Shown piece after piece: positions 1 through 46,955 of a DNA stretch of 61,252 nucleotides. The number at the start of each line of letters is the position of its first letter. Within the stretch, counting starts at the first letter, position 1. The notes below the pieces were generated by a model. That model saw only the letters and a list, made by a program, of their open reading frames with translations. It was not told where the DNA came from and made no database searches. Both the position numbers and the translations under genes were made by a program. This DNA comes from Chiloscyllium plagiosum. Its lineage: Eukaryota. Location of the stretch: the NCBI RefSeq assembly GCF_004010195.1, contig NC_057726.1, positions 68,917,155 to 68,978,406 on the forward strand, in the 5' to 3' direction.

Positions 1-58
1 ACCATCACCACGATCCCCAAAATCAAACGGAAGATGTTAATGGTGTGGAACCGGCCAG
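1..58 (-). CDS. Gene A transmembrane exon (truncated by window edge), activating-type TM with Arg: (A)GRFHTINIFRLILGIVVM...
   Basis: Acceptor ...tatccttcag ending at 59, then phase-1 exon CT GGC CGG TTC CAC ACC ATT AAC ATC TTC CGT TTG ATT TTG GGG ATC GTG GTG ATG. N-x-x-R precedes the hydrophobic run. A homologous exon occurs at 37298-37198. Confidence 0.85.
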
Positions 59-930: not shown

Positions 931-1212
931 CGTGGTTTGGAACCGTGTAGCTGATATTTGCCGGGACGCCGAGTGCGACGTGAGAAACCTGGCAGGTATA
1001 GACTGAGCCCCTCTCCGGAAGACTGAGCTCGCTGGAAACTTGAAATAAACCCTCTTCGTTTAGGATTTTCCTGATGCTGATGCCAGACGTGATTTCGGAG
1101 AAATTTTTATACCACACGAGTTCAAACTGCCCCGGGAAGAAGCCAGCTGTTGTGCAGAGGAGAGCGAGGAAGGGCGAGTCGAGGCGGGTTATCTTCAGCG
1201 GGGTTGGTGGCA
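931..1212 (-). CDS. Gene A Ig C1-set domain exon
   Basis: 282 nt, ttccag| acceptor and G|gtaagg donor, phase 1/1. Translation VPPTPLKI...LLCTTAGFFPGQFELVWYKN...GLFQVSSELSL...VYTCQVSHVAL has C1-set hallmarks (Cys-x3-GFFP, W, YTCxVxH). Confidence 0.93.
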
Positions 1213-1879
1213 CTGGAACACAATAACATTCAATAAATCAATATCGGAAGTTGTGTGTGGGTTGGACAGAAGACAGAACAGCCTGTCAAAAGGCACAGGC
1301 ATTTCTTGAATTTTGGAGGGAATTCTTTTTTTTAAATCAACCTATTAATGCTAACAACTAAAGTTTCAATTTTGAAAGTTAGAATCGATGTACGTTCGTT
1401 AAACCTCCCCGTCCTTTGCATTCGGATAAAAAGTGGAGATAAATAGAGTGGACCATGTCAGAATGGGCAGCCGCTGATAATGTTGGACGAGACACATACT
1501 CTACACACGCAGCTCGGAGTCTGCATTGGATTAACAGTGGTCAAATCAGACAAAGTCAGAGTCCATACTAAAAAAAAGCGGTTTCATCAGACACCCTCGG
1601 TCTGTTGTCCTTTGAACAATCACTGGTTCAATCGGACACAGGCAATCCAGAGTCTATTAAATGCTTACTTCTTTTCCACGAGACATTCTCAATCCATAGT
1701 TTGTATTGAATTCTAATTGGTCCCATCTAAGTCTCAAACCCAAGTCCAAGTCCAATGAGATGCTCCGCAGAGACGGGACTTTCTCAGGGACACTATCCAT
1801 GGCACTGCACACAAGGCCGTTGAGAAGAAACAGGGAAGACACAAGACTGGTTGGAAGCGAGCTCAAGTAATCTCACCGC

Positions 1880-2520
1880 TGTCAAGGAGGCAAAACGTGT
1901 TGCGCCACTCCACCCAGGCAACACTTTCTGCACTAAGGACACCAAGACACAAGTGTAATGTGCACCCATAATGTTGCAAAGAAAGGAGTTTCAGGATTTT
2001 GATCCAGAGACACTATAATAGGAATGGTGTTATATTTACAAGTCAGGGTGGTGACAGGCTTGGAAGGGAAGTTGTATATGGTCGTGTTGCCATCTATCTG
2101 CTGCTGTGGGGTTTGAAGGTGCTGTCGACGAATATTGGGTGAATTCCTTTACTGCGTCTTGGAGAAGGCACACACTGATGTGACCGGACATGTTCATATG
2201 TAAAACGAAATCCAGGATTGTCACAGAGCGGTCATGGAGGGAATGGTGATGCATGTGGTGCCAACGAAATAGGCTGCATTGCCTGAATGCATTGTCAAGC
2301 TTCTTGGGTGTTGGTGCAGCTACATTTAATTCGGCAAATGGCTCGTCTTCGATCATATTGTCGACATGTGCTTGATAAATGGTGGATAGGATTTGGGGAG
2401 TCAGGAGGTGGATCACACATTGTTGGATTCCTGGCCTTCCATTTGCACTTGTAGATATTGTATTTGCATGGTTAGTCCAGTTCAGGGCCTCGGCAACCCC
2501 CAGGATGATAATGTCTTGTA
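1880..2520 (-). mobile_element. Old degenerate LINE remnant in the gene A V-C1 intron
   Basis: Minus-strand ORF 2036-2416 has decayed RT C-terminal-like text (IYQAHV..NMIE..P.A..NVAAPT..KKLD). Boundaries approximate. Confidence 0.45.
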
Positions 2521-2845
2521 AAATAAATGAAAAGGCATTTTTCTCGGAAATATTTCGCTGGAGTTGTAAGCAGTCTTTCAGCTATAAACGATAGCTAACT
2601 AAGTCAGCTATTAGCAATGTCATCGGCTAAATTCCAAGTAGAAGTTCAACGATTAGAGATTTTCACAAAATGCTTCCCTTGACTGTTAAAGTTATATGCG
2701 AAATGAATTTGCACTTTTTTTTCCTTTACTGAGAATTAAAAACCCTATATCCTTCAGTTGATTATTTCTAATGAACTTGTCCTTGAAACTATTTGGTCCA
2801 TCTTCTTCTCAATCATTAGTTCCCGATTGACACTCAAACACGCTC

Positions 2846-3993
2846 ATAGAGATGTACATCATGGGAAAAGACCCTTCGGTCCAACTCGTACATGCCGATC
2901 AGATATCATAACCTAATCTAGTCCCATTTATCAGAAGTTGGCCCATATCCATTCAAACCCTTCCTATTCAATTACACATCCAAATGATTTTTAAATGCTG
3001 TAATTGTCCCAGCCTCCACCACTTCCTCTGGCAGCTCATTCCATACACGTACCACTCTCTGCGTGAAAAAGTTGCCCCGTAGGTCCCGTGAAAATGTTTC
3101 CCCCTCACCCTAAATCTATGCCCTCTAGTTCTGTACTCTCCCATCCCAGAGAACAGACCTTGTCTATCTATCCTATCCATGCGCCTCATGATTTTATAAA
3201 TCTCGATAAGGTCACCCATCAGCCTCCAACACTCCGGGGAAAACAACACTATTCAGCCTCTCCCTGTAGATCAAATGCTCCAACCCTGGCGACAGCCTTG
3301 TAAAGTTTCTGAACTCCGTCAAGTATCCCGGCATCATTCTGAGAGGAGGGAGACCAGAACTGCACACACTATTCCAAAAGTGACCTTACCAATGTTCTGT
3401 ACAGCCACAATATAACCTCCCAACTCTTATAGTCAATGCACTGACCAATAAAGGAAAACATACCAAAGAACTTGTTCACTATCCTGTCTACTTGCGACTC
3501 CACTTTCAACTAACTATGAAACTCCACTCCAAGATCTCTTTGATCGTCAACACTCCGTGCATAAGTCCAACCCTGATTTGCCTTTCCAAAATGCAGAACC
3601 TCGCATTTATGTAAATTAAACTCCTTCTGTCACTCCTCAGCCCATTGACCCATCTGATCAATATCTCGTTGTTCTCTGAGTTAATCTTCTTCACTGACCA
3701 CTACGCCTTCAATTTTGGTGCCATCTGCAAACTTACTAACGAGACCACCTATGTTCACATCCAAATCATTTATATAAGTGACAAAAGTCAGTGGGCCCAG
3801 CACCGATCCTTGTGGCACACCATTGGTCACAGGCCTACAGTCTGAAAGGCAAACCTGCACGATCACCCTCTGTCTTCTATCTTCAAGGTGGTTCTGTATC
3901 CAAATGGCTAGTTCTTGCCGAATTCCGTGCGATCTTGCTAACCCGTCTACCCTGAGGAACCTTGTCGAACGCTTTACTGAAGTCCATGGAGAT
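2846..3993 (-). mobile_element. CR1/HER1-type LINE, 5'-truncated
   Basis: Minus-strand fragments MDFSKAFDKVP, GVPQGSVLGP, SKFADGTKI, GDLIEIYKIMR, RTRGHRFRVRG, followed by a typical 3' UTR. Confidence 0.9.
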
Positions 3994-5218
3994 CCTTTGG
4001 AAAAATATGTTGGCTTCCCAGCCGCGAACGCTTTGTTCACGCAATGTGAATTGAAACAACAGGCGATCTTTGCACACACTTCTCAGGATTGCGTTTAATC
4101 ATTTTCCCATCGAATCTTTGCTCCATGCTTCAAAACCACATTTTCAATTAACAATATCCTGTTGCAATCCCACTCAACATCGGGTATGGATGATGCCATT
4201 ATCCACTTCAAAGGTAGAGTTCCTTTACATTTGAAGTTGGTGCGCAGACTTGAGAAAGTGCCTCCAGCACCCAGCCATGCTTCAGGAACAAAAAAACTGC
4301 AGACTCCAAATATATTTCCATTATTCTACCTTAATGTACGTAGACTGATTGCACCAAGCTAACGAGGTAAAGTGCTCAGAGAATTTTACCCTGCTTCATA
4401 AAATCAGGACTTAAGGGGAGACTCAGTCTATGAGGAATGTAAATAATTACCAAACGTTACAAGTAAAATTGGGGATTAAGAAAAATAAATTTAATCTCCA
4501 AGTACTCAGTAAACATCTCATCAAAATCATACTTGGAAGCAGCGCAAGTACATTTCTCGTTATAATGTCATTTTAGAAGCAGACCAAATAACACTCTCTA
4601 CTTCTCAGTTAAATGTTGAGAGCACTTAAAAGTATTCAAGTATCCAATCCGTTAGCGTGAGGAAGCACAACATTTCTGAGACACCATTTAATAATTCGTT
4701 CTCCGGTAGCATACATTTGAATGTTTTCCTAAAGCCCGTTCTTCTTTTGGAGGATAATTATTTAACTCTCGGTTTAATTACTCATACCGTGCTGTAGCTG
4801 CATCCGTTTATGATCACTTGCACCTATTTGATAATCGATTTTGAGAACCTGACATTTACCTCTTTAAAAGAAAAACACATCTTTCCACGTTGAACTCCAT
4901 GACAAATCCAATGCATTGCATTTCCGATGGCTACCTAAATCAAGTGGTGCATAATTTAGGATACATTATCTGCTTTTAAATAGTCGATATAAAACAAGAT
5001 TAAATACATTACACGGCCTGGCTAACTTTGATTGACCGCGGACGGCAAGTCTGATGTACACCAGCACAAGTTCGGTCTAAGTGTCCTTGAACTGAAAAAA
5101 AAACCAAGCCCGCCTTTCGACACCAAACTATTAGCAGACTCCTTGCTGCTCTTGTGATCTATTATCGAGGTATACCTGCCTAATTTAACGTTGTTCATTT
5201 CTCCTCAGTGACACTCAC

Positions 5219-5539
5219 CGTGTACGATAAGCTTAGTCCCATTCCCATTGAAAGTCTTCCTGCCGAAGACGCTGATGCTACAGTAATAGATTCCGGAGTC
5301 CCGGAAGCTCACATTCAACAGATGGAACTCAGCAGATGCTTGCTTGAACGGTAACATTATTTTCCTTTCGTCTGCTGTTGGGTCCAAAGTTTTGGTCTGC
5401 CCGTCTTTCCGCCAAGAGACATCCACCGATAATTTGCGATCGAAAAGCGGGATGGAGCAATACATTGACACATTTGCACCTTCCACTGCAGTCAGGCACG
5501 CAGGGATTTGCGTCACAGGCAAAGGGGTTTTGCCAGTAT
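5219..5539 (-). CDS. Gene A Ig V-set exon with germline-joined J-like segment
   Basis: 321 nt, tttctggtag| acceptor and G|gtgagt donor, phase 1/1. Translation DTGKTPLPVTQIP...EGANVSMYC...VSWRK...DSGIYYC...NGNGTKLIVH shows C, W, DxGxYYC and a GxGTxLxV G-strand. Confidence 0.93.
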
Positions 5540-5732
5540 CTACCAGAAATATACACAAACATTAGTTGGTCATGTTTCATGTCCTGAAAAAGGAAAAGAG
5601 GTAAAATAATGGGTAAGAAATTTAACGAAAGAAAATCAAATAATTAATCATGAAAACGACGCTGCCTGTTTTGAGTTCCCGGTATTTCCATTCATATTCC
5701 TATCCGCTAGGTGAGTGACAATATTTATAGAC

Positions 5733-5787
5733 CTGTATAAATGATTCCCAGGGCTGAGAGATAGCACATCATATGGAACACAGGCAT
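5733..5787 (-). CDS. Gene A leader (signal peptide) exon MPVFHMMCYLSALGIIYT
   Basis: ATG at 5787, 55 nt, phase-1 donor ACAG|gtct, 193-bp intron to V. Same length, position and YLS..GIIY motif as the paralogous leader at 47010-46956. Confidence 0.82.
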
Positions 5788-6800
5788 CTTGGGCAGGGAA
5801 GATCTCGAGCAGGAAGACAGCAACAGCCAGCGAAAATCGGTGGAAAAAGTGTAACCATCTGGGACTCCCTGGTGCATTCAGGCATCGACTCTGTGTCTGA
5901 GACAACCTCAATGAATTGGTTCTGTTTAAGGCGGATCGACGGAAGTAGGTGTTGCAAGATGAGGATGGCTCAGGTCTGATTGGTGACCAAGAGAATTTGA
6001 AATATTTTCGCATGACGTGAAAGGTTTCTAGTTGAGACAACACTTGTCTGAGTTCAGTGTTGTCCGACCTGTGGCAGTTGGGAGCGCGGTGGAGATCTGG
6101 CCCAGAGGTGGTGATCAAATAGAAATGCATGCCCTGATCTTACAGTTGGACCGGATGCCATGTCCTTGAATGACTTTGTTGAGGGAAAACAGGGAGAAAG
6201 GAGTGGTCAATGGTCAATGGTTTGTGTTTATGGCCCAGTAGAGCCACGTAGGTGCAGTAAAACCACCCAGTCCGGGAGAATCTGATACAATGACTAGATA
6301 AGGTGGATGAAAATGAATGGAGCCTATCGATTTCAACTGCACAGTTGAGGGCAGGTGGAGATGAAAGATGTGATGGTATTCTCTGTTAAAATCCCGAAGA
6401 GGTGATGGGAGCCGACTTGGAAGGGATTCAATGGTCAACAGAACATTTGTGAATTTCTTTATTTTGATTTATTCAAATTTCAAAGTTTATTCTTGATTTA
6501 TTCAAACTCACTTCTGATTAATGAAGTTTCAGCATAAAATTGTTGCAAACATGCTCATAGTTTTGGAAAGTGCGAAGAATATTGCATTCAGAGATACTTC
6601 CAAGTAAGGAGGAGTCAATGAACAGGCTCTGAGATAAGTTTTGAATGTTGAACAAGGGAGTTGTGTTTGGGGTGAAGACGTCACTGAGGATGATATAATA
6701 TAAATCAAATTGGTTGGAGGAATGAAAGTTGAATAATGAGTTATTTGTGATTATTAAGGTTGAAAGAGCAGGAAAAAAAAGGGTGGAATGATTTTGGAAA

Positions 6801-7092
6801 GACCATGTGAGCTGGGAGAGGTAAAGGCAGGAAAGAATCCAGTGACAAATCCAAACAGGAGAAACACTGAGGACGCTGCAGGATATGTTTGAATTTCTTT
6901 CCCAGAGGACACAAGTATGCAAGATTTTGCATATTTTTGACAACAAGACCATGTGAGCTGGGAGAGGTAAAGGCAGGAAAGAATCCAGTGACAAATCCAA
7001 ACGGGAGAAACACTGAGGACGCTGCAGTATATGTTTGAATTTCTTTCCCAGAGGACACAAGTATGCAAGATTTTGCATATTTTTGACAACAA
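6801..7092. repeat. Tandem duplication, 2 x 146 bp
   Basis: gaccatgtgagctggg...tttttgacaacaa at 6801-6946 and again at 6947-7092, two substitutions. Confidence 0.95.
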
Positions 7093-7593
7093 CAACTATA
7101 CCAGCCTTTCTTCTCCAATTTGTTTTTCAGATTAAACTTCAGTTTCACCATCTGTCGTGGTGTAGGTGAACATGCGTGATTGCTAACCCCATGACACACC
7201 ATTATGGCACTTGCGCCAAATCTTACATGCAAAACGTTTAAATTAAATGCAGCAGATTTATTCAAACTCATAACTGATACTGTTCACCTCCTTCTGTTCG
7301 ACACCTGTTTGATTTAACCAAGCTATGCCAACGGTAAAAGCCGCGTGAAAGCCACTTTACTAATGAATGCAAAAAAAAGTTGGAATTGAAAGACTGATAT
7401 GATGTTCTTGTAACACGGTGATTGTTATTTTCAAAAAAACATTTCTTTACGTACAAACTCCAGTACAGCCCCAATTTTTTTCCTTTTTTTAAAATCATGT
7501 TCACAAATCTGCATGACTTGACTACGCCTTGGTATGTTCTCTATCGCCACAGAGGCGCTTTCAGTATTAATTATTAAGGGCACTCTTCTACTA

Positions 7594-7897
7594 GTGGCAC
7601 AGTGGTTAGTACTGCTGCCTCACAGCGCCTGAGACCCGGGTTCAATTCCCGCCTCAGGCGACTGACTGTGTGGAGTTTGCACATTCTCCCCGTGTCTGCG
7701 TGGGTTTCCTCCGGGTGCTCCGGTTTCCTCCCATAATCCAAAGATGTGCAGGTCAGGTGAATTGACCATGTTAAATTGCCCGTAGTGTAAGGTAAGGGGT
7801 AAATGTAGGGGTCTGGGTGGGTTGCGCTTCGGCGGGTCGGCGTGGACTTGTTGGGCCGAAGGGCCTGTTTCCACACTGTAATGTAATCTAATCTAAT
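7594..7897 (+). mobile_element. HE1-like tRNA-derived V-SINE, young copy
   Basis: A box tggcacagtgg, B box ggttcaattcc, V-domain tgtgtggagtttgcacattctccccgtgtctgcgtggg, tail ...ctaatctaat. Confidence 0.92.
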
Positions 7898-8539
7898 ATT
7901 TACCCTACCTTTTTGAAAACCTTTTAACACGGTAGCATTGGTTACCAGCGCTGATTGGTTGTTCTGTCTCAGCAATGTTATATACTCCAACTCAAGTTGG
8001 CTCAGGTATTTATTACATCATTCTTGATCTGTTGTAGTTTAAAGAATGACGAGCAATACTGTCCATGAAGAACGATTGATACTCATTCTGGAACCTCTGG
8101 TGATGGGATTACATCATCAGTTCAGATGTGGCCATGTTAGGAATATATGGCTCTGGGTGATCCATGCCTCAATGTAAGGTGATGAGATCGGATGTTGCAC
8201 ATACAGGGTGATGACGTTTTTTTTCTGTATGTAGAGATGGTGGCTTACGTGGATGAATGTACAGTGCAACACTCAAAATGTGGATTGTAGTGTGATGGGA
8301 AGTCATTTCCAAAATTTTATGTTCAGTTGTGTTATAAATAAATGATCCCCCTTTTTTGATGCCACAATTCTGCGACTGGCTGGTAGGGCGATGACGTCCA
8401 CTTCAGGATGAGCGCAGTCTGGAGGCGACCAGGGCAGGGATATAGAGTGATGAGTCTATTCTTTGCCATGAGCAGTGATGCTGGATCCATATCAGCACTC
8501 GAGGCTGCTGGAGTAAATTTCATGAAGACAAGGCGACAT

Positions 8540-10660
8540 GCTGCTCTCTGTAACTGACTCCCGTGATATGTGCTACATGAATGATTTTATTTGCAGATTT
8601 TGCCCATTTCAAATTGAGTTCAACAATTACCTTCAGCAAACCATGGAGTGGAGAATCAGCGATGGTAATGCATTGAATTTCAAAGGCCAGTTGTTAGATT
8701 CTATCTTATTGGAGATGGTCATTTTCCAGTAGTTGAGTGGCGGATTTGTTACTTGCCAGTAGTCAGGCCAGGACTGGATGCCATCAATATTTTGTTACAT
8801 TTGGACGTGGACTGATTCAGTATCTGAGAAATGGTCGGTGGAGCTGAACTTTGCACAAACATCAGCAGTTATTCATTATTCTGACATCAGGATGAGGGAA
8901 AGATGACTGACTCCTGATCAGCTTCACGATCTTTCATTGTGTGAGGTAAGACTTCAATGAGCAGGGAGCTTTCACCTCGTTTCTAATTGGGTTTATTTTA
9001 CTGGGACTCCTTACAATGGCTCAGTGCTGACCTTCTCCCAAGAGTAGTTACTTTCACCCCCTCTCTGGACTTTAGCTTTTTCTGTGTTTGAAAGGAAGGC
9101 TGTAATGAGGGCAGGATCTGTGTGGCCCTGGCGGAGCCTAAAGTGGGCGTCACTGAGCAGTTTATCAGTGAGCAAGCGCTACTTCACTGTTGATGATATC
9201 TTCCAACACTTTATTGGTGAAGGGCTGGTGACATGGAAAGTTATTTCAAATGGTTTGTAAAGGTTTGTAATACCTTTTGCGTGCATGGGCATACCGCAGA
9301 TGCTTTCCCACATTTTCACAAAGATACCAGTGTTCCAGTCGTCGGGGATCAGTTTGGCTTAGGTTGGGACAACGTCTCATTAGATTAGATTAGATTCCCT
9401 ACAGTGTGGAAAGAGGCCCTTCGACCCAACCAGTCCTCACCGACCCTCTGAAGAGTAACCCACCCAGACCCATTCACACTCTGACTAATGCACCTAACAC
9501 TATGGTCAATTTAGCATGGCCAATTCACCTGACTTGCACATCGTTGGACTGTGGGAGGAGACCGGAGCACCCGGAGGAAATCCACACAGACACAGGGAGA
9601 ATGTGCAAACTCCACACAGTCAGTCGCCCGAGGCTGGAATCGAACCTGGGACCCTGGTGCTGTGAGAACACAACTCTTCAGTATTATTGCCGGAAAGGTG
9701 TCAGGTCCCATAGTCTTTGTAGGACCTAGTCCATTGAAACGTTTCTTGACATCACATCGAGTGATATTTTAGTTGGCATTTACGATGCTGGGAAGTACTT
9801 GAGGATATCAAGATGGTTCATCGACATGTTCCTTTTTCTGAAGATTGTTATATATTGCTAAGCCTTTTCTTTTTCGCGGATTTACTGTGCTTCCTATTCA
9901 TTGAGTTTGGGGTGTTTGTGGAGCTTCCACCACCAATTACTTGGTTAATATCAACCATTATTTATGACTGGTGGTGACAGGATTGCAGAGCTTGATGTGA
10001 TGCCTTTGTTGTGGAGTCCTCTCTTCGAATTGATGTGTATGCTGCCTGACATGCAATTTGCCCTGTTTTGTAGCTTTGTCATGTTTTTATCCCATATTTA
10101 GGTATTCCTGGTGCTGCTCTTGGCATTTCTTCCTGCATATTCTTTGAAACTGCGTTTGATTCCCTGGCTTGATAGTGTTGATAGAGTGGCGAATATGCTG
10201 TGCCATACCTTGCAGATTGGTATGAATATAATTCGATTGTTGTCGATGGCCCACAACACCTCATGGACACCGTGCTTTCAGTTATTATACCTGTTCCAAA
10301 TCTACCTCATTTAGTACGATTGTGGTTCCACACGACACGACGGTGTGGATGCTCACTCAAAGACGTGACTTCATATTCTCCAGAACAGTCAGTGGTCACT
10401 CGTATGGATACAGTTATGGTCAGATGTATCTGCGACCGTCAGGTTGTTGAAGCTGAGGACAGTTTTGTTCCCTCTTTTTTGGCCCACTGCCTTCGCAAAC
10501 GCCAGTTAACCACCTTTTGTACTTGGCCAGCCTGGATAGTACTTGGACTGCCGACCCCTCATGATAATAGACATTGAATTTACTCGCCCAAGGTACACCC
10601 AGCACTCTTGACCCAGTCACTGCTTTCTCCAAGTGCTCATCAACAGGGATTCTTGTTGAC
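8540..10660 (-). mobile_element. Degenerate LINE remnants, interrupted by a SINE
   Basis: Decayed endonuclease/RT-like text on the minus strand (e.g. VLGVPWASKFNVYYHEG..., LVFVKMWESI-like). No intact ORF; family and ends uncertain. Confidence 0.4.
9379..9667 (-). mobile_element. HE1-like V-SINE
   Basis: Reverse complement of the SINE at 7594, with an attagattagattag tail. Confidence 0.9.
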
Positions 10661-11137
10661 TAATCTTTACCGGCTTGCATGACGTCCCTGTTGTCGCAGC
10701 ATCAGGTCTGTCATTAAGTTTTAACCTGGTTCAGAATCAGTGAAATTAAATTGTTAATCTTGTTTAGTCTCATCGCTTCTGATCAATCGTGAGGCATCGT
10801 CAACAACATTGGGACAGAGTGCTTTTGTAACATTTGTTTATGATATTTCAGCATCGACTACTCATGTGGCTGATCAAATTCTTGAGTCTGCTTATAATGC
10901 TGAATAATGAAGGGTAGTTAGCGCACTGTAATAGCTGTTTTCTTGTCTTCGAGGATCCCTTACTATGTTTAACTGAGCTGGTACTAGACGCCCGGAGAAA
11001 CCTTGTCCTTTTGTCGGCTCCACACTAACATCCCAGAACAGAACAAAGACTATGGAGATCTAAAGTTGGAAATGCTCGAGAAACGCAAAAGGTTTGCCAT
11101 CACTGTTGGAGAGAGAAACAGAGTTCATGTTTCCTGT

Positions 11138-11637
11138 NNNNNNNNNNNNNNNNNNNNNNNNNNNNNNNNNNNNNNNNNNNNNNNNNNNNNNNNNNNNNNN
11201 NNNNNNNNNNNNNNNNNNNNNNNNNNNNNNNNNNNNNNNNNNNNNNNNNNNNNNNNNNNNNNNNNNNNNNNNNNNNNNNNNNNNNNNNNNNNNNNNNNNN
11301 NNNNNNNNNNNNNNNNNNNNNNNNNNNNNNNNNNNNNNNNNNNNNNNNNNNNNNNNNNNNNNNNNNNNNNNNNNNNNNNNNNNNNNNNNNNNNNNNNNNN
11401 NNNNNNNNNNNNNNNNNNNNNNNNNNNNNNNNNNNNNNNNNNNNNNNNNNNNNNNNNNNNNNNNNNNNNNNNNNNNNNNNNNNNNNNNNNNNNNNNNNNN
11501 NNNNNNNNNNNNNNNNNNNNNNNNNNNNNNNNNNNNNNNNNNNNNNNNNNNNNNNNNNNNNNNNNNNNNNNNNNNNNNNNNNNNNNNNNNNNNNNNNNNN
11601 NNNNNNNNNNNNNNNNNNNNNNNNNNNNNNNNNNNNN
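11138..11637. other. Assembly gap (500 N, placeholder size)
   Basis: Run of exactly 500 N. Confidence 1.
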
Positions 11638-12772
11638 ACGGCAGCAGACACATGGCAATATGACCACCTACAACTTCCCTACCAAACCTTTCACCATCCC
11701 GATTTTGAAATGTATCACCATTCCCATAATAGTGTCACTGGGTCAAAATTCTGAAACTCCTTTCTTTGCAACATTACTGGTGCAGGTATACCTCCGTGGG
11801 TTGCCGTGGTTCAAGAAGACAGCTTACTACCATCTTCGCAAGGGCAATTGGAAATAGGAAATAGAATATTGAATCGATAGAAACGCCAACATTGCATGTA
11901 CACTTTTCCTTGAAAAAAGTTAGCTATTTGGCGTCTTTTGAGGGGCGGGGTGGAGCAAACAAAGGAATTCTTGAATTTAGGATGCGATTTTTTTATTGCA
12001 GTTTTTAACAGATGCGGGTGGAGGTTGGATTCATCTCAAATGCAAACGTATCTTCGGACAGATGGGTAGAGGGTCAAATTCCAAGCTCAATAATCAAAAC
12101 GAGATAAAAAAAAAAAGAATGGGAGTGAAAAATAAATTGGATTAAGCTTGTATTTGTGATAGTGTCACGCTAGTGATAGAAACTGAACGCCCCGTTTTTA
12201 TCTATCTTCAATCGTCGTTCATTGCGACCAAAATACAAAGACACGACCAGTCCTGGACTTGAGATTGAGGCTTTTGATGAGACCAGTTATAATTAAATGC
12301 AAACTGTGGATTGAGAATGTCTGGTGGATCCATTAAGTAGATTCTGGATTCCTGGTATCCAATTGAACCAGTGATTGTTCAATGAACAATAAACTGAGGG
12401 TGTTTGGTGGAACTGGTGATTATTTAGTATGGACACTGACTAACTGTGACCACTGTTTATTCAATACAGATTCTGAGCTGCGTGTGCAGAGCACGTGCCT
12501 CGTCCAACATTTTGTCTGTTTTGTGCAGGGATTTGTCCACTCCATTTATCTCCACTTTCTATCTGAATAAAAAAGAAGGAGCTGTTTAACAAGCAAACAT
12601 CGATTTCAAGTTTCAGAATTGGAACTTTATTTGTTCACATGAATAGGGTGATTCGAAAAACATTCCCTCCAAAATTCAGAAGACGTCTATGCCTTTTGAC
12701 AGGCTGTTTTGTCTTCTGTCCAACCCACGCACAACTTCCGATATTGATTTATTGAATGTTATTGTGTTCCAG

Positions 12773-13054
12773 TGCCGCCAACCCCGCTGAAGATAACCCG
12801 CCAGTACTCGCCCTTCCTCGCTCTCCTCTGCACAACAGCTGGCTTCTTCCCGGGGCAGCTTGAACTCATGTGGTATAAAAATTTCTCCGAAATCACGTCT
12901 GGCATCAACATCAGGAAAATCCTGAACGAAGAGGGTTTATTTCAAGTTTCCAGCGAGCTCAGTCTTCCGGAGAGGGAGTCAGTCTATACCTGCCAGGTTT
13001 CTCACGTCGCACTCAGCGTCCCGGCAAACATCAGCGACAAAATTCCGAATCACG
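12773..13054 (+). CDS. Gene B Ig C1-set domain exon (inverted paralog of 931-1212)
   Basis: 282 nt, ttccag| and G|gtaagg, open frame VPPTPLKITRQYSPFLALLCTTAGFFPG...YTCQVSHVALSVPANISDKIPNH; 18 differences from the gene A C1 exon. Confidence 0.92.
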
Positions 13055-14828: not shown

Positions 14829-14942
14829 GTAACCAAGACCGTACTTTCTCTTACGCCTTAGTCTTTGGTTGTGCTGCAGGCGGGATTATGATTTTAGTTC
14901 TGGGAATTGTCTTAAAGGGGTGCAAATCAGACAGAACAACTG
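14829..14942 (+). CDS. Gene B transmembrane exon, copy 1 (uncharged TM): GNQDRTFSYALVFGCAAGGIMILVLGIVLKGCKSDRTT
   Basis: 114 nt, ccctatag| acceptor, G|gtgaga donor, phase 1/1 matching C1. Hydrophobic span followed by basic residues. Confidence 0.85.
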
Positions 14943-15212: not shown

Positions 15213-15256
15213 GCAACGCGATTGCTGAGGACATGAACAGCCAATTTGAGGAACAG
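15213..15256 (+). CDS. Gene B first cytoplasmic exon, copy 1: GNAIAEDMNSQFEEQ
   Basis: 44 nt, tctctgacag| acceptor, CAG|gtcagt donor, phase 1/0. Confidence 0.7.
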
Positions 15257-16667
15257 GTCAGTTTCTATTTATGACAATGAGAACGAAACTGTGAGTGGGA
15301 CACTTTCTTGCTCTCGCGCTCAGCCTGTCTTTCTCACTCTCTTTCTCTCTCTCCAATTCACTCTTGGTCTTATTGGAAAAATCAAAGTTATTCTTTCTCT
15401 CTATATTCACCTCCCACTTTCTTGTCCTCCTTATCTCCGTCACCGTAATGCGTCCAACATCTGGCGCCACTCGCTCTCCATTCACTTCCTGGGGATTCCG
15501 TGGTTACTGCCTTGGTACGCACCTCAGTTGGTCTGGTCGCTCATTTCTGTTTTTGAAGGCCGTAGGATCAATTCCCCTTCCGATCCCACGCACAATGGTT
15601 TGACAGAGCCCCGCAGTGCCGAGGCAGAATTGCTGAGTTGAAGGTCCGGTCTTTCTGGGGCTAAAGTGGGTACTATAGATGCTGGAGATTAGAGTCAAGA
15701 TTAAAGTGGTGCTGGAAATACACAGCAGGTCAGGCAGCATCCGAGGAGGAGGAAAATCTGCTTGAACCAATTGTCCCTTCACGCAGGAGCAAAAGATCCA
15801 GCACGCCATTTTGCAGAACAGCAAGTAAGCCCTGCGTGAATACTTCTCCCCCGAAATCCAGATCACAGAATCAGATGGTCTGATCACTATCACATTGGAC
15901 TTTCAAAAACAGTGTTCATAATGGATGCTACAATACATCTGTTACAACAGCGACTCTACTGCAAAGAAATAGAAATAGACAACAAATGCTGCCTCAGCCA
16001 CCGATACCCACATCCCATGAGCCAATAGTAAAAACCGATGCATTCATCCAATCTTTTGGCACATGTTCCTTCGGCAAGATTCCGCTTGGTAGATTTGTTA
16101 GTAAAATTAGATCACGTGGGATTCAGGGAGAGCTGGACAATTGGATACAAAATTGATTTGACGGGGGGAGTCAGGGTGGTGGTAGAAAGTTGATTTTCGG
16201 ACTCGAGTCTTGTGACCAGTGGTGTCCCACATGGATCAGGGTTGGGTCCAGTGCTTGTTATTTATCTAAATGATTAGGATAAGAATATAGGAAGCATGGT
16301 TAGTAAATAATGGGCACAGGGTCAATTCTTTAGCCTGCTTGAATGACGTGTGGAACGAGGAAGAGATCTTTACACCTGGTAAATACGCGCTAATTGGCAG
16401 AGGGATTATAAACAATGCTGTATATTCATTAAGTCAAATACGGTCATTAATCTGAATACATGCTGGTGTTTTTGAAATGGATAGGCGCTTTGTGGTTCAA
16501 TTAGTTGGTCGGTACAGGAACAACGGAGCCCTACGTTCGGTGATAAGCAGCAGGAATGTGGCAGAGACGGATTTAATGTAAGTGTAGTCTGTTACCTGGA
16601 GTTGTCGAATACGTTGTATCATCTGCTTTTAAAAATGCTAACATTCCACTTTCTCTGTCCCCTATAG

Positions 16668-16781
16668 GTAACCAAGACCGCACTTTCTCCTACGCCTTAG
16701 TCTTTGGTTGTGCTGCAGGCGGGATTATGATTTTAGTTCTGGGAATTGTCTTCAAGAGGTGCAAATTAGACAGAACAACTG
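16668..16781 (+). CDS. Gene B transmembrane exon, copy 2: GNQDRTFSYALVFGCAAGGIMILVLGIVFKRCKLDRTT
   Basis: Same splice sites as copy 1, 5 substitutions. Confidence 0.85.
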
Positions 16782-17051
16782 GTGAGATGTGATTTTTTCC
16801 TGATTCTGTACTGGGCTTTCACCTCTTGTTACATTTCACTGCTGCAGTAGGAGAGAAAGGGGACGGGCAGTCTGGAATGAAATTTTCAAGAGCAGTGCGC
16901 ATAATGTGCAGCTCATCTCATACAGAGAAACAGCAGAATATTAGCGTTCGGCGAGCCTGCTCACTTTGTTTCAATGGTGGTTAATTTCTTGCGGACATGT
17001 GGTACATTGTGAAAATGATCATGTGTGTAATGCCATTTGATTCTCTGACAG

Positions 17052-17095
17052 GCAACGCGATTGCTGAGGACATGAACAGCCAATTTGAGGAACAG
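17052..17095 (+). CDS. Gene B first cytoplasmic exon, copy 2
   Basis: Identical to 15213-15256; its phase-0 end fits the next exon. Confidence 0.72.
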
Positions 17096-17784
17096 GTCAG
17101 TTTCTATTTATGACAATGAGAACGAAACTGTGAGTGGGATGTTGTCTACATACGGGTAATTTATATCCATACTCCAGGAATCTCAGACGTACTCCTTCGA
17201 CCGCGCGCATATCGAGTTCACGGTGTCCCCAGTGCATCACTGTAATATGAACACGAGACAGTGATTCATTGGGACAATGATGTCGAGTCCAGTCGAGACG
17301 GCAGTTCTCTAAGACAGTTTTAAATGTTTGCGTTTTGTTCGGATCAGTTGGCCTGCTCTTCAGTCAGGAGCAGAGGCACAGCTCGATTTGTGATTGCCCA
17401 TTATTCCCATCCCCAAATCTCTGACCGTGTTTGTGAGAGTTGACTGCCCTGGGCGGGATTCCGACCTGCTCCTGGCTTTAGACTCCGAGCAAAGATAGGG
17501 ATAATCTGAAAACAGCAAACTCAGAACTTACGCTACCTATTCAGCATTGCGTGCGCCAGTTCGAGTCCAAACGGTCAGAATAATTTATCTTAACTTCGGT
17601 TGTGAATGAATGTTCCAATGAACGGGTGGGAAGCAAGAGCTGCAGTCCTTACCATGGCTGCATCATCGGTGTTATTTACAACTCTAACCTGCACGAACTG
17701 ACCACAACCAATCTGTTATGCTATTGACTGCAACATTTTTTTTAAACTTGGTGGCTAATATTTCTGCAAAACAATATTTCTCAG

Positions 17785-17907
17785 ATCAATCGGGACAGAG
17801 AAGCAGTGAGTCCGATTTATGCTGCTCTCCACTTCAGCGGAGAGATGAAACCTGCAAAACTGCGAACGGAGCAAGAGAGCTTCGTGTATGCGCAGGTACT
17901 GTCATGA
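17785..17907 (+). CDS. Gene B cytoplasmic exon with two tyrosine motifs: INRDREAVSPIYAALHFSGEMKPAKLRTEQESFVYAQVLS*
   Basis: tttctcag| acceptor, phase 0 continuing from cyt1, TGA at 17905-17907. ITIM-like IYAAL and VYAQV. Paralog at 22641. Confidence 0.8.
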   Translation: MNRDREAVSPIYAALHFSGEMKPAKLRTEQESFVYAQVLS

Positions 17908-17967
17908 AAATTAACCATCGGTTTTTCAATAGGGACCGCTCTAACACACGTCTGACCTCAGTCATGT

Positions 17968-18489
17968 ATGATTTGGAGATGCCGGTGTTGGACTGGTGTG
18001 TACAAAGTTAAAAATTGCACAACCCCAAGGTTATAGTCCAACAAGTTTAATTGGAAGCACTAGCTTTCGGAGCGCCGCTCCTTCATCAGGTGGTTGTGGA
18101 GTACACAATTGTAAGGCACAGAATTTATAACAAAAGTTTACAGTGTGATGTAACTGAAATTACACATTGCAAAATACTTTGATTGTTAAGTCTGTCATCT
18201 TTTAGCATGACATTGTTTCGTTACTTTCATATGCAAATCACAAAACTTTGTTTTAAAGTTACATTCTCATGTTAACTTTAACAATTAGTGTCAGCCCAGA
18301 TTGGTGTTTCAGTTACAACTGATTGGTGATTCCTGAAGAAGTTGCTTGTGCCCGAAACGTCGATTCTCCTTTTCCCTGGATGCTGCCTGACCTGCTGCGC
18401 TGTTCCAGCAACACATTTTCAGCTCTGATCTCCACCATCTGCAGACCTCACTTTCTCCCCGTTTCAGTTACATCACACTGTAAACTTTT
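17968..18489. mobile_element. PLE-derived interspersed repeats (two families) with hammerhead-like cores
   Basis: atgatttggagatgccggtgttggactgg family (also at ~59872) with minus-strand ctgatgaaggagcggcgctccgaaagc, and cctgaagaag...cccgaaacgtcg at ~18332. Confidence 0.65.
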
Positions 18490-19131
18490 NNNNNNNNNNN
18501 NNNNNNNNNNNNNNNNNNNNNNNNNNNNNNNNNNNNNNNNNNNNNNNNNNNNNNNNNNNNNNNNNNNNNNNNNNNNNNNNNNNNNNNNNNNNNNNNNNNN
18601 NNNNNNNNNNNNNNNNNNNNNNNNNNNNNNNNNNNNNNNNNNNNNNNNNNNNNNNNNNNNNNNNNNNNNNNNNNNNNNNNNNNNNNNNNNNNNNNNNNNN
18701 NNNNNNNNNNNNNNNNNNNNNNNNNNNNNNNNNNNNNNNNNNNNNNNNNNNNNNNNNNNNNNNNNNNNNNNNNNNNNNNNNNNNNNNNNNNNNNNNNNNN
18801 NNNNNNNNNNNNNNNNNNNNNNNNNNNNNNNNNNNNNNNNNNNNNNNNNNNNNNNNNNNNNNNNNNNNNNNNNNNNNNNNNNNNNNNNNNNNNNNNNNNN
18901 NNNNNNNNNNNNNNNNNNNNNNNNNNNNNNNNNNNNNNNNNNNNNNNNNNNNNNNNNNNNNNNNNNNNNNNNNNNNNNNNNNNNNNNNNNNNNNNNNNNN
19001 NNNNNNNNNNNNNNNNNNNNNNNNNNNNNNNNNNNNNNNNNNNNNNNNNNNNNNNNNNNNNNNNNNNNNNNNNNNNNNNNNNNNNNNNNNNNNNNNNNNN
19101 NNNNNNNNNNNNNNNNNNNNNNNNNNNNNNN
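18490..19131. other. Assembly gap (642 N)
   Basis: Run of N; hides the acceptor of the following exon. Confidence 1.
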
Positions 19132-19235
19132 ATCTCACCGCTTCCGAGGAAACTGCAGGAAAACCGAAGGAAAAGCAGGCGGAGTATGCAGAGGTCAAAA
19201 TAAACCAGGGAAGCGGAAACTCCTGGATTCCATGA
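19132..19235 (+). CDS. Gene B second tyrosine-motif terminal exon, 3' part: ..NLTASEETAGKPKEKQAEYAEVKINQGSGNSWIP*
   Basis: Open frame to TGA 19233-19235 with AEYAEV. Colinear with the complete paralogous exon 22882-23032. 5' end lies in the gap. Confidence 0.7.
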
Positions 19236-22640: not shown

Positions 22641-22758
22641 ATCAAACGCGACAGAGGCAGTGAATTCGATTTATGCTGCTCTCAACTTCAGCGAACCGAG
22701 AAAAACCGGGAAACCGTTAATGGAAGAAGAGAGAGTTGTCTCTGCAATTGAAAATTAA
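22641..22758 (+). pseudogene. Relic C: degenerate first ITIM exon (..EAVNSIYAALNFSEPRK..)
   Basis: Homologous to 17785-17907. Weak ccgag acceptor, 2-nt deletion relative to gene B, second Tyr codon is TCT. No upstream V/C1/TM exons. Confidence 0.75.
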
Positions 22759-22881
22759 CAGTCGGTTCCAACCCGGACCAGTCTAACATAAATCCGATCT
22801 CAGTAATGTACACCGACAACCTGAATGGCTTTATTAAACAGAGTAAGAAGACTTCCTCATATTTCATTGTTTCTCACGCAG

Positions 22882-23032
22882 GCAAAGCACCCGGACAGTT
22901 GGTGAACTGACGTATGCCTCTTTGAATCTCACCACTTTCGAGCAAAGGGCAAGACGAAAACAGTGGAAGGAGCAGGCGGAGTATGCAGAAGTCAAGATGT
23001 GCAAGGGAAGCGGAAACCCCTGGATTCCATGA
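22882..23032 (+). pseudogene. Relic C: second ITIM exon QSTRTVGELTYASLNLTTFEQRARRKQWKEQAEYAEVKMCKGSGNPWIP*
   Basis: ttgtttctcacgcag| acceptor; canonical ITIM LTYASL plus AEYAEV; homologous to 19132-19235. Confidence 0.75.
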
Positions 23033-37197: not shown

Positions 37198-37298
37198 TCA
37201 GATATTTCCATTTTCTGTATCAAAGATCCACACAAGAATCACTACCGACCCCAACAGCAAACGGAAAAGATTGTTGGTGTTAAAGCGCTTAATAGAAT
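37198..37298 (-). pseudogene. Gene D transmembrane exon, activating type: DSIKRFNTNNLFRLLLGSVVILVWIFDTENGNI*
   Basis: Clear homology to the gene A TM (RFHTINIFRLILGIVV vs RFNTNNLFRLLLGSVV). Weak ccaagag acceptor; short tail ending in TGA. Confidence 0.75.
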
Positions 37299-40200
37299 CT
37301 CTTGGAAGGCAGCACATTGAAGGAGTAAAGGCGTTTATTAAGAAACAATTGAACAATGGAGAATGAATACCGTGAGGTGCATGCTAATCATGTGACCATG
37401 CAGCATCAACTGTAATAGGGAGAGAGAAGCAGGGAGAGAAGGCAATGGAGAGGTAGACCAAGCTGAGCAGGCAGGCTGCGAGAAAAAAATAAGGACGCAA
37501 AAATAGTGTTGAAAAAAATGACAAAAAGGAAGAGGATTTCAAGAGAGGTCAAAAGGAAGAAAGTGAGAGAGATTCAGATTGAAAGACATACAGAAAACCA
37601 ATATCATTGATATGTTGGATATAGGGCTCTTTATTTTAGCTTTTACTTCAGATTCCCATCAGTATTCTTTTTGCATTTCATTTGGGGTTCATTCATTAGC
37701 ACAAAAATCAAATTATTTGGTGCTGGATAGAAAAGGAAGGGGTGCGCAGAAATTGTTTCAATGTGGGCAACCTCAGCCACTCCGCATGTCTACAAGCTGG
37801 AAATTGGTTCTCTAATTCTTTGCAGCCACTTTGCTCTACTGGCAGTGCTTGCAAATTGGCTCCTTGCAGGTAGATTTGGTGAATGTAAGACTAATTAGAT
37901 GTAGTGTTGAATATCTGGATTGAGCATCTATGCAATTTTTTGCAAACTCTGAATCCTTGAAATTCATGCTGCTGGAGCAAACAAACAGTACCAGTATAGA
38001 GTACAGCATTAATATTCTGAAAAATGGATTAGATTTTTAATCCATGGTTAAATAAGGCCAATAGAAGTATTGTACTGTATTTTGCAAGAGCTATACATGT
38101 TATTTGCACATTTATTTAAATATCAATCAAACAACGTCTCCCAATGCACCAGTGGGTGACAATCTTGTATATTTTAATAATCCTTTAGAAAAATAATCTG
38201 CTTAGCTGTACCAGTCATTTCAACTAATTTATTCTAGTTTATTTGTTTCTCCCCTCTGTGTCATTTAGGTTTGCAATCTAAACAGGATAAGTTGCAATGT
38301 TTCATTTTCACTGCTGGATTTTGTTTTTAAAATCGCACCTTTTTTAAAAAAAAAGGTAGGTGTTAAACCGTGATGTTAAATTGATTCACATCTTCACTAA
38401 GTAACATTTGATCCAGCAGGCATTCTCTAATGCGTAATGTATTACGGATGGGTGCACATCTAACACACACACAAGCATTGTTTAGCATCCATCTGGAAAA
38501 AAAAGTCATTTTCCATTTAAGTGGGTATGGCGTGTCGATATATTTTGCTTCTTTTGCATACAATTACAATGACACACATGTTTTCAGCTGTTTTACGGAT
38601 GTTCCATTGACTTTAATGTTTTTAATGTTTTTATCCATCAGGCATAGAAAAATGACCCACGTCATGATTGCTAATCTAATGTGTAGTGTTGCACAGAGAG
38701 ATTGATATTATATAAATATACTTACGGACACGAAGAAAATAGGAGCAAGAATAGGATATTCGATCATTCACGACTGCTCTACATTTAGTGTGGTCACGGT
38801 TGATCAGTCAATTCAGCACCCTGTTCTCACTTTCGCCCCTTACTCTTTGATCCCTTCAGCCCTAAGAACTATATTGAAATGATTTTTTTTTGAAATCGTT
38901 CAACATTTTGGCTGGAACCACTTCCTTTGGCAAAGACCTTTGTAGGCTCAATATGCGCTGAGTGATGACATATTTCGTCATTGCTGAGTGAATAATACCG
39001 CATCCTTAAACTGGGACACCTGAATGTGGACTACCTACTTATCTGGAACTTGCTTTCTGTCCATTGGTATTTGAATTCTATACGTTTCTATGAGAGTCCC
39101 GCTTCATTGTTCAAATTCCAGTGACTATAATCTTTTAGCACTTTTCTGGCCCACAAGCGATCCCAAACAAGGACATTAGGAAACAATGAAATACGAGTGA
39201 AGTGCAGTTAGTTGCATAATCTTGAGAAGTGCATTTCAAATAAACTCCACAAGCTGCAATTCAGCATCAATCAGGTTTATGTTTTGGTCATCTTGACTGA
39301 AGAATTAGTATTGACCAGACCACCTACTTAACGCCCGGGTCTTCATCAAAAAACAGCCCATAGGACCAACAGCGACATCCATTCTAAGGCCGAAGGATAC
39401 AAATACCCCATCTGTTCTATACTCCACTCCTTCCTCATCCCCAAGTTTGGAACTAATAAACCCTTGTCCTCTCTCCCTGGAAGCACAGCTCCATCCTCAT
39501 TGGCTACTGCACCATACAACTTCACCACTTGTCCTTCTCTCCTCTTGGGAGTCAGCATACCCTCAACCGTCGGCACCAGGCGCCTCTATATTCCAGAGAA
39601 CTGACACTTTTCCTCCCCTCTGCTGGCCCCAAATACCTTTCCCAATCCTGACAATCCATTCTCAATAGGAACTTACACATCTACTCCCACTGCTGTCCGA
39701 TTGACCCCCCAGGATCCTCCTTGCCGAACAGGACACTGGACCCGACTCTCTGCCCATAGGAGTCTGTCCAAAACATTTCATCACTTACTTGGCACACTTA
39801 ACACATGGTACTCTCTTTACTCTATTTGCATGGCACTCTAATTACATTCCACCCTACTTAGCTTGCAACTGTCCTATCTGACACACAGACATCCTATCCA
39901 ATTAGCAATCTGGCATGTGAACGCACTTGGATTCTTATGCACTTGGCCCCCATCCTACCTTGTATTCTCACCTTGCACTTATTACATCAGTTATTGTATC
40001 CAGCGGATCTGTCAAAGTGGCTGTCTGTACTGCTCAGTATTTAGATGACATGAAAATATAACAACTGCCATGAACAGGGTATATGGTTTTTCTTCCCAAC
40101 AATTTTCTTGATTATGAGGAGCGATTAAACTTATTCTCCCTATTTCTGCAGGATTCCTAATCAAAATCTCCTACCAGAAGTGCGAAGCACTTTCTTCATG

Positions 40201-40440
40201 TAAATCATATGAGTAATCTGGCAATCTAACTATGATTAATACTCATCAGAATATTCAATGTATCTATCCATGCAATTCATCAAAGAACTCTTGGCACAGC
40301 AGTGGGTACAGTTACGCTGTTCTGACATATGGTGTTAAGACATTTCACTTGCATGATATTGAAGTTTAAAAAGAGACACATAAATAGACAAAAATAAGCA
40401 TGGAACAGTTCAATGGCTTGTTGAGATTTGAGATACTTAC

Positions 40441-40715
40441 CTTGAAGCAGATCTGCGCAATTATTGCTGGCTGGGGCCTCAAGTGATACATGAGAAACTT
40501 GGCATGTATAAGTTGACCAGCTATCCATTTGAAGCTGGCAACTTCAAATAAACCCTTCCCCTTTCGTCTTTTCATAGTGTTCATTCCAGATGTAATCTCT
40601 GTGTCATTTTTATATCAAGTGAGGTTGAAGTCTTCAGGCAAGAAGCCAGCTGTTTTGCAGAGGAACGTGAGGGTTGGAGAGGGTAGCCGAGTAATTGTCA
40701 CTGGAGTCGGTGGCA
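40441..40715 (-). pseudogene. Gene D C1-set exon, disabled
   Basis: Splice sites intact (ttcttag|, G|gtaagt), but the invariant Trp is TGA (40617-40615; LT*YKN) and the length is 275 nt (net -7, frameshift before STYTCQVSHVSL). Confidence 0.9.
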
Positions 40716-44935: not shown

Positions 44936-44941
44936 TTAAAC

Positions 44942-46758: not shown

Positions 46759-46955
46759 TTGACAGAAATAAAGTGAAACGGAAATAATGGGCAGAATTAA
46801 TAATGACAAGATATGTTCGAAAGAAAGAAGCAATGCATATGGAACACAACAAAACCACGGAAAACGACAATAAGCGATGGAGGTTAGATCTACATCATTC
46901 CCATTCCTATTTAACAGGCAGGTGTACAAACACAACTCTATAAATATCTGCCTAC

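Follow-up and report, generated by a model that had tools for sequence, protein, structure and literature searches.

Genes A and B of Chiloscyllium plagiosum, two VJ-C1 receptors within a large shark cluster, most probably (at roughly 80%) represent a predicted activating/inhibitory pair whose ectodomain exons have been re-matched repeatedly by non-allelic gene conversion, with positions 958-1294 as the likely latest footprint in C1. Near-identical ectodomain exons embedded in diverged introns, together with the grouping of ectodomains by species and of membrane segments by type, point to repeated gene conversion as the process that likely matches A and B. The mechanism is already known from SIGLEC11/16, whereas the shark family is little described. 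The window, i.e. the whole stretch of 61,252 nucleotides that was analysed, contains the following features:

1..58, minus strand: gene A transmembrane exon, truncated by the window's left end, with an Arg in the membrane segment
660..9926, minus strand: whole ectodomain block of A, with homology to B-type genes (~83-89% in blastn segments)
931..1212, minus strand: gene A C1-set exon, 282 nt (Pfam C1-set match)
958..1294, minus strand: homogenised tract on A, comprising 82 intronic nt and the first 255 exon nt
5219..5539, minus strand: gene A VJ-type V exon, second homogenised tract (unique sites: A 4 versus one B-type copy 21)
5733..5787, minus strand: gene A leader exon
11138..11637, no strand: 500-N scaffold gap between A and B
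12691..13027, plus strand: homogenised tract on B, corresponding to 958-1294 on A
12773..13054, plus strand: gene B C1-set exon (Pfam C1-set match)
14829..14942, plus strand: gene B transmembrane exon, uncharged, with a second copy at ~16668-16781 in a 1.84-kb tandem repeat
15213..19235, plus strand: gene B cytoplasmic exons (~15213-15256; 17783-17897, with IYAAL; 19133-19235, with EYAEV)
22654..23029, plus strand: gene C, vestige of a tail of the inhibitory type (IYAAL, LTYASL, EYAEV)
37234..46777, minus strand: gene D (V exon ~46433-46777; C1 40441-40715; Arg-type membrane exon ~37234-37287)

The ectodomains of A and B are alike and their membrane and tail modules are opposite, an Arg-bearing segment in A versus an uncharged segment plus tyrosine motifs in B, with signalling predicted from these motifs. 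Accordingly, A is predicted to be activating from the Arg in its membrane segment (orthologous segments of this exon: P0024, P0009, and P0015), and B to be inhibitory from its tyrosine motifs; the LTYASL of the Hemiscyllium orthologue falls into the gap at 18490-19131. Only one C1 exon per gene was found, in the window and in full-length relatives. No ectodomain was found for gene C within the window, and the C1 exon of gene D is disrupted by one TGA and one frameshift. The neighbouring genes E and G were rejected as a clear on/off pair, since the membrane remnant of G is of the inhibitory type.

By blastn, 900-1748 matched 13086-12254 in inverted orientation at 83.3%, and the alignment continues, more weakly, to about 660/13435. 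The inverted homology put forward in the original prediction (~660-1750 with ~12255-13435) therefore stands as homology, but its orientation depends on scaffolding, since A and B, assembled on opposite strands, flank the 500-N gap. No sequence spanning this gap was found, 9950-11130 matching only itself and a dispersed repeat. The homologous block is also larger than had been claimed: it covers at least 9 kb, stretching on A's side from ~660 to 9926 or beyond, and takes in the upstream region with the promoter, the leader, the V exon, the V-C1 intron, C1, and ~270 nt of the next intron. The V exon of B is absent at the scaffold gap, and two unplaced scaffolds carry B-type V exons; B's promoter, leader and V exon are probably hidden in the gap, with the unplaced C91049 or C89912 as candidates. 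A search with 100-930 matched only itself, so that no second A-type copy was seen.

Identity was not uniform across the block. Indeed, the difference counts reported earlier were reproduced exactly, with 2 of 82 nt differing between A and B in the intron before the acceptor, 11 of 255 in the first part of the C1 exon, and 7 of 27 at its end. Likewise, the flanks are more diverged (0.19-0.21 in deep introns and 0.35 in the C1-TM intron), and most exon differences are non-synonymous (8 versus 3 synonymous in the first 84 C1 codons). The tract is not special to C1, however: homogenisation of the V exon (89-92% identical) is no weaker than that of C1, and the leader region is also affected, with a low divergence of 0.04-0.05 at 5788-6140, upstream of the leader. 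As a side observation, no RNA data set was listed as containing the C1 stretch, and 0 RNA reads fell on 5000-5900 in ~2/100 of one raw run, too small a sample to be a test. The C1 of A was confirmed to be closer to that of B (89% protein identity) than to that of D (57% over 61 residues), but this proves nothing alone, and the argument was set aside because D is distant and broken.

Strictly silent sites were analysed with a scan statistic and permutation p values. In the comparison of A with B alone, the dip was borderline and not significant (p=0.09). When A was compared with both B-type copies, i.e. B and a third copy (U), 1 of 82 strictly silent sites differed in the best segment (1295-959), versus a rate of 0.16 (p=0.0006); with U alone, the dip had p=0.016. 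No dip was found in the control comparison of B with U (p=0.62; 5 of 82 acceptor-side sites differing), so the location of the tract is not a mutation cold spot, and this explanation was rejected. Deep introns gave A-branch to B/U-branch counts of 239:60, which shifted to 9:12 for the tract (Fisher p=4e-4) and to 4:21 for the V exon (Fisher p=1e-10), with boundaries picked after inspecting the data.

The low divergence of the tract could also be a dip due to chance or constraint: the ectodomain would have been duplicated once, with a tail swap, and nothing but purifying selection on the exon and splice signals would have acted since. This explanation, to which the A versus B scan (p=0.09) gives some room, would agree with the similar acceptor-side conservation of the L006-L012 subfamily, a second one of the cluster, whose profile is the same (deep intron 0.22-0.25, acceptor side 0.05-0.11, exon 0.03-0.08, pS 0.08-0.14) and fits general conversion as well as general constraint near the acceptor. 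A search for tail types in this subfamily gave matches for 3 of 6 genes, with the Arg type in none. Since conservation of the acceptor-side 82 nt is high there too, the original statement that selection cannot explain the intronic identity is too strong for these 82 nt alone. Nevertheless, B and U are not slowed in the tract relative to each other, and another trio lacks acceptor-side conservation (0.19-0.34), which makes a dip of this kind quite improbable.

The gene-conversion reading is supported by cross-species protein trees. In the membrane-segment tree, all 4 activating-type proteins form one clade (100/99). The segments of Chiloscyllium, Hemiscyllium, and Heptranchias sort by type, and a clade of Heptranchias alone can be rejected (p=9e-5). 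The C1 and V trees group mostly by lineage. The C1 tree unites Hemiscyllium A and B (99/95) and five Heptranchias genes (100/99), and rejects an activating-tail clade (p=5e-61) as well as the grouping of Chiloscyllium A with Hemiscyllium A (p=0.012). Thus, orthologous proteins did not reveal the species-crossing clustering that would have spoken against conversion. C1 identity reaches 96% between Hemiscyllium A and B versus 84% between the Chiloscyllium and Hemiscyllium A orthologues, and the V-domain pairs of Heptranchias join genes of different tail types (A1-B2 99% and A2-B1 96%, versus 88% for A1-A2; p=6e-9).

Hemiscyllium A and B have residues L37, H57, K67, I75, and T79 in common, which are absent from all three C. 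plagiosum copies, although A-type and B-type intron flanks are both present in read contigs of organisms A, B, and C, indicating that the duplication predates these species. This argues further against a dip by chance or constraint. On the other side, C. plagiosum A does not group with its own B and U against Hemiscyllium: a strict A+B+U clade of C1 proteins was rejected (p=0.03), and A has kept residues 10-11 and an exon end of its own. For C. plagiosum, conversion later than the Chiloscyllium-Hemiscyllium split is therefore not established, whereas it is demonstrated for Hemiscyllium. Judged from the same trees, within-lineage clustering of ectodomains holds for Hemiscyllium and Heptranchias, and for bamboo sharks at the family level.

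Reads from other samples also bear on the tract. In organism B, three positions of the A-type contig (949, 1061, and 1077) show the B-type letter, among the differences listed. In organism C, A-type contigs stop at 985 and restart at 1265, and one deeper contig spans the exon, a single-contig signal that extra B-type copies and the loss of small variants from contigs can exaggerate. The site lists for organisms B and C are lower bounds, each of the two difference tables covering 40 rows besides 102 and 107 further ones. A collapse of the V exon in organism C was looked for in both runs and not seen; two distinct contigs were present in each, so V is not fully homogenised there.

An assembly artefact, produced by B reads polished into A or by A and B haplotypes of one locus scaffolded adjacently, is conceivable in a fragmented assembly with a gap between A and B and unplaced B-type scaffolds, in which the gene B tandem repeat is 95.5% identical and its second copy is 98% like an unplaced scaffold. 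However, a separate sample bearing the label of the same species holds A-type contigs at 640-1000 (2 differences) and 1226-1784 (3 differences) beside B-type and U-type contigs, with the A flank joined to the A exon end. Moreover, the tails of A and B are non-alignable types, and the same A/B-type pairing is present in independently assembled species. An artefact is thus extremely improbable and, orientation apart, largely refuted for the tract.

Under recurrent conversion, the locus comprises three layers. The membrane segments of A and B belong to two long-separated lineages that Heptranchias has as well. The block of at least 9 kb, from promoter to C1, has introns only ~15-20% diverged, and would have been copied wholesale much later than the tail split. 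Finally, divergence is down to 2-6% in the 5' region, in the V exon, and in C1 together with its acceptor side; short conversions may go on where purifying selection has preserved enough identity for strand invasion, spilling over into the adjoining intron, and would have bypassed the deep introns, which contain indels and mobile elements. A and B would thereby share one ligand specificity but signal in opposite directions, A putatively through Arg coupling to an ITAM adaptor and B through tyrosine motifs recruiting phosphatases.

Alternatively, no pair may last, each lineage gaining a new activating gene by unequal crossover that fuses the old activating tail with the inhibitory ectodomain of the time, while older activating copies die; gene D would be one such dying copy. 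Serial birth accounts for the deep pattern of Heptranchias versus bamboo sharks and for a 9-kb block with one boundary near 660, and is in line with the broken D and with a Hemiscyllium A model in which V is missing and the membrane end is shortened. Nevertheless, a single crossover cannot give short low-divergence tracts flanked by A-type intron on either side, as found in C. plagiosum and in organisms B and C, and we consider this scenario unlikely, although unequal crossover may well have been the source of the second layer alongside conversion.

More tentatively, it is possible that the same activating and inhibitory tails have been kept matched by recurrent ectodomain conversion since before the galeomorph-squalomorph split, with V domains re-matched one to one as in Heptranchias (99% and 96%). 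If so, this undescribed VJ-C1 family, whose domains are arranged like those of an antibody light chain, would be among the oldest continuously maintained paired-receptor systems. Repeated conversion between A and B would mean that paired receptors maintained in this way also occur in the oldest lineage of jawed vertebrates that has adaptive immunity, and would make this one locus a record of three dated layers: old tails, a younger 9-kb block, and the youngest exon tracts. It also calls for caution, as ectodomain trees misassign orthologues in this family. Matched on/off pairs are direct candidates for ligand finding, and allow a test of whether activating members arose to counter pathogens exploiting inhibitory ones.

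Among known systems, SIGLEC11 and SIGLEC16 are described in PMC5701461 as inhibitory and activating neighbours, head to head and ~9 kb apart, whose N-terminal exons and upstream region have been homogenised by repeated, fragmented conversions per lineage. A and B resemble them in combining similar ectodomains with opposite predicted signalling modules, in the silent and intronic dips within the tracts, and in the clustering, within the shark family, of the ectodomain by species or lineage and of the tail by type. In contrast to these sialic-acid lectins, A and B are shark VJ-C1 receptors whose placement on opposite strands rests on scaffolding across the 500-N gap. Furthermore, their tail lineages are common to shark superorders and, given the ages of these superorders and of the primate pairs, must be much older than the latter.

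A second likeness is with NKp30/NCR3, since the best solved-structure matches of the A V exon are NKp30 (PDB 6yjp, 3noi, 9fww, and 3pv6; E about 1e-5), these 4 best of 21 matches being weakly ahead of TCR V-alpha. NKp30 carries an Arg in its membrane segment and has its V domain directly before that segment; shark NCR3 has reportedly been treated by Kinlein et al. in 2021. Gene A shares the single-exon VJ domain, the GxG J-like motif, and the membrane Arg, but the shark family differs in having a C1-set exon between V and the membrane segment, inhibitory members, and dozens of genes. According to PMC10751288 and PMC12227049, the NCR3/NKp30 family is linked to the MHC. No such linkage was found for the shark cluster, as 29 of 50 MHC class I matches lie on C37 and 0 of 50 on C17, the chromosome of the cluster.

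Database labels of several relatives read 'tyrosine-protein phosphatase non-receptor type substrate 1-like', although these labels are automatic and inconsistent, including also tapasin-like, MHC-like, and CD276-like. SIRP-alpha is inhibitory and SIRP-beta activating, with VJ and C1 domains and paired tails; the SIRP ectodomain is V-C1-C1, and the membrane residue in that family is Lys. A and B differ in having one C1 instead of two and, in A, Arg rather than Lys, and resemble SIRP in the VJ plus C1 layout with paired tails.

Gene A, predicted to be activating, and gene B, predicted to be inhibitory, are neighbours separated by a 500-N gap in the window (C17:68917155-68978406 of the 3.56-Gb C. 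plagiosum genome), and the matching protein models are labelled uncharacterized proteins of Chiloscyllium plagiosum. Their receptor exons encode V-set and C1-set Pfam domains:

5787-5733, minus strand, gene A leader exon
5539-5219, minus strand, gene A V exon
1212-931, minus strand, gene A C1 exon
from 58 past the left window edge, minus strand, gene A membrane exon, with Arg in the membrane segment
12773-13054, plus strand, gene B C1 exon
14829-14942, plus strand, gene B membrane exon, uncharged

The best 4 of the 21 solved-structure matches to the V exon were NKp30, T-cell receptor V-alpha being only slightly behind. The tail exons of gene B bear the motifs IYAAL and EYAEV, and its Hemiscyllium orthologue has an additional LTYASL, which in the window would fall in the gap 18490-19131; no V exon of gene B was found in the window. 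Gene D, with an Arg-type membrane exon and a C1 exon (40441-40715, minus strand) disrupted by a frameshift and by a TGA in place of the conserved Trp, is likely a dead activating-type gene. Gene C, a tail remnant, lies in a degenerate copy of the gene B 3' end (22232-24688, plus strand), which has a tail of inhibitory type but lacks an ectodomain in the window. A 148-nt tandem duplication (98.6%) is located upstream of the gene A leader (6799-7092), and locus L032, immediately downstream of gene A and ~1.3-7.4 kb beyond the left window edge, contains a long ~34-nt tandem repeat array with an internal inversion.

The inverted homology of the two C1 regions, noticed in the original prediction, was confirmed, as were all its difference counts (2/82 in the intron before the acceptor, 11/255 in the first part of the exon and 7/27 at the exon end). 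Divergence between genes A and B was 0.19-0.21 in deep introns and 0.35 in the intron after C1. A silent-site scan of 760-1750 covered 602-631 strictly silent positions, made up of 40 four-fold sites and the introns without their last 40 nt at the acceptor and their first 10 at the donor, with adjacent differences merged and 20,000 permutations. The best low segment was 1295-959 in all three comparisons with gene A: 4 differences in 82 silent sites against gene B (permutation p=0.09), 3 in 82 against U, a B-type copy on an unplaced scaffold (p=0.016), and 1 in 82 against both (p=0.0006). The same scan of B against U showed no dip (p=0.62), and 5/82 acceptor-side nucleotides differ between them; the tract is therefore no mutation cold spot, an explanation that this control rules out.

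Counts of sites private to gene A, set against those private to a single B-type copy, were 239:60 for deep introns, 9:12 for the tract (Fisher p=4e-4) and 4:21 for the V exon (Fisher p=1e-10), the boundaries being picked post hoc in both cases. For V-region comparisons, W, a B-type copy on another unplaced scaffold, served as presumed stand-in for gene B. V exon divergence is smaller between A and U (0.038) than between U and W (0.066), and the 5' region 5788-6140 is also low (0.04-0.05). At codons 10-11 of gene A (1180-1183, minus strand), three adjacent differences make a short direct repeat, and may have arisen together in one template-switch mutation instead of being left over from the ancestral sequence.

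A second subfamily of six genes (L006, L007, L009, L010, L011 and L012; C17 69.15-70.72 Mb) showed divergences between subgroups of 0.22-0.25 in deep introns, 0.05-0.11 on acceptor sides and 0.03-0.08 in exons, with pS of 0.08-0.14. This profile may reflect conversion there too, or shared constraint, and counts against reading the gene A dip as conversion only; in a third group, of three genes, the acceptor side is not conserved. In its exon, L011 differs from L006 at 10/299 sites and from L010, its sister by flanks, at 14/296, which hints at conversion over >1 Mb.

Scaffold C89912 (U) contains V, C1 and membrane exons of B type, 94.5% identical to gene B and 86% to the gene A V region, and C91049 (W) carries a promoter, leader and V region of B type, homologous to 4094-9926 of the window, with identities of 84-92% to gene A by segment and 93.7% to U. 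The block common to A and B-type genes is therefore at least 9 kb long. Read-contig depths in a run under the species' own label (A-type 22-26, B-type 24, U-type 36) suggest that gene B and U are separate loci, not alleles. A 1.84-kb tandem repeat (95.5%; 13465-15300 / 15300-17139) doubles the gene B membrane exon and first tail exon; since its second copy is 98% like C89912, two B-type copies may have been wrongly joined here.

Protein models of Arg-segment and inhibitory type were found in Hemiscyllium ocellatum (P0024, and P0006 and P0003, respectively, with adjacent accession numbers) and in Heptranchias perlo (P0009 and P0015, and P0013, P0014 and P0166, all listed on a contig of equal length). 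The P0024 model has no V domain and stops early after the membrane segment, and may be decaying or mis-annotated. Trees comprised 20 C1, 17 V and 18 membrane-segment rows, chosen from the nearest matches with one isoform per gene; P0019, whose model lacks a membrane segment, was excluded from the membrane tree. Membrane segments cluster by type, with all four activating rows together (100/99), and a Heptranchias-only clade was rejected (p=9e-5, in a 40-column tree with a long-branch warning). C1 domains cluster by lineage, Hemiscyllium A with B (99/95) and the five Heptranchias genes together (100/99); an activating clade was rejected (p=5e-61), as was one of Chiloscyllium A and Hemiscyllium A (p=0.012). 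The similarity is 96% between Hemiscyllium A and B, and 84% between Chiloscyllium A and Hemiscyllium A. Heptranchias V domains are matched across tail types at 99% and 96%, versus 88% between both activating genes (p=6e-9). A clade of Chiloscyllium A, B and U was also rejected (p=0.03), because A retains an exon end and residues 10-11 of its own; conversion later than the split of Chiloscyllium and Hemiscyllium is therefore shown for Hemiscyllium and not for the C. plagiosum genome. The V domain of W (L047 V exon) has motifs in common with Hemiscyllium B P0006 (98/93) that are absent from U and A, so that either V lineages would cross species or U would have been converted from A.

Read contigs over 640-1800 were compared in 4 of 24 listed runs. 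Both A-type and B-type flanks were found in organisms A, B and C, the sources of these contigs, and the intron split therefore predates these species. A-type orthologues differ from gene A at 21/490 nt (organism B) and 21/300 nt (organism C). Among the differences listed (40 of 142), positions 949, 1061 and 1077 carry the B-type letter in the A-type contig of organism B, and some "unique" letters of gene A are therefore recent; the exon contig of organism C has letters at 988, 998, 1042 and 1056 found in neither gene A nor B. A-type contigs of organism C end at 985 and start again at 1265, and one contig at depth 11 (flanks 4-5) spans the C1 exon. This pattern is consistent with identical paralogues, and could be mimicked by extra B-type copies (a third contig has depth 9.8 at 1420-1453) or dropped small variants; organism C has I75 and K67 in common with the Hemiscyllium proteins and may thus not be independent of them. 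No collapse was seen at the V exon in organism C, with two distinct contigs in both runs.

The silent-site tests and cross-species trees support gene conversion, the mechanism originally proposed, and extend it to the V exon and other shark lineages. Three layers are present: old, separate tail lineages, the 9-kb ectodomain block at ~15-20% intron divergence, and exon-centred tracts at 2-6%. The ectodomain block would have been copied wholesale on the branch that gave rise to bamboo and epaulette sharks. Repeated short conversions would have followed, lasting where selection maintained high identity and extending into the intron on its acceptor side; the tract ends would vary between species. 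The B-type exon end of the Hemiscyllium activating gene suggests, for Hemiscyllium only, transfer from inhibitory to activating gene. From their motifs and what is known of paired receptors, genes A and B may combine matched ligand recognition with opposite signals.

The receptor family is large: C17 has 42/66 C1 matches, from a search in which 150 of 311 candidates were scored, and 35/41 V matches; MHC class I matches fell on C37 (29/50) and none of the 50 on C17. Two large V-C1 receptor gene clusters of mixed orientation are located at C17 61.5-62.3 Mb and 68.9-70.7 Mb. The automatic names of the relatives' proteins are inconsistent (SIRP-like, tapasin-like, MHC-like, CD276-like).

Gene conversion is an already known process, of which the shark VJ-C1 pair is probably a new case; within a literature search of limited coverage of subscription journals, no paper was found on conversion or pairing in the shark VJ-C1 family. 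Unlike NCR3, the shark A/B family has an extra C1 domain and lies on a different chromosome from that with the MHC class I genes, and is therefore not classed as NCR3. A study of shark NCR3 (Kinlein et al. 2021) may bear on how the family is named. NKp30/NCR3 is described as MHC-linked (PMC10751288, PMC12227049), and joined-VJ receptors as including NKp30, SIRP and NITR (PMC11599192). SIGLEC11/16 is described as a head-to-head pair with a spacing of ~9 kb, in which every primate lineage shows fragmented converted regions (PMC5701461), and the shark A/B pair resembles it in appearing to work by the same kind of conversion.
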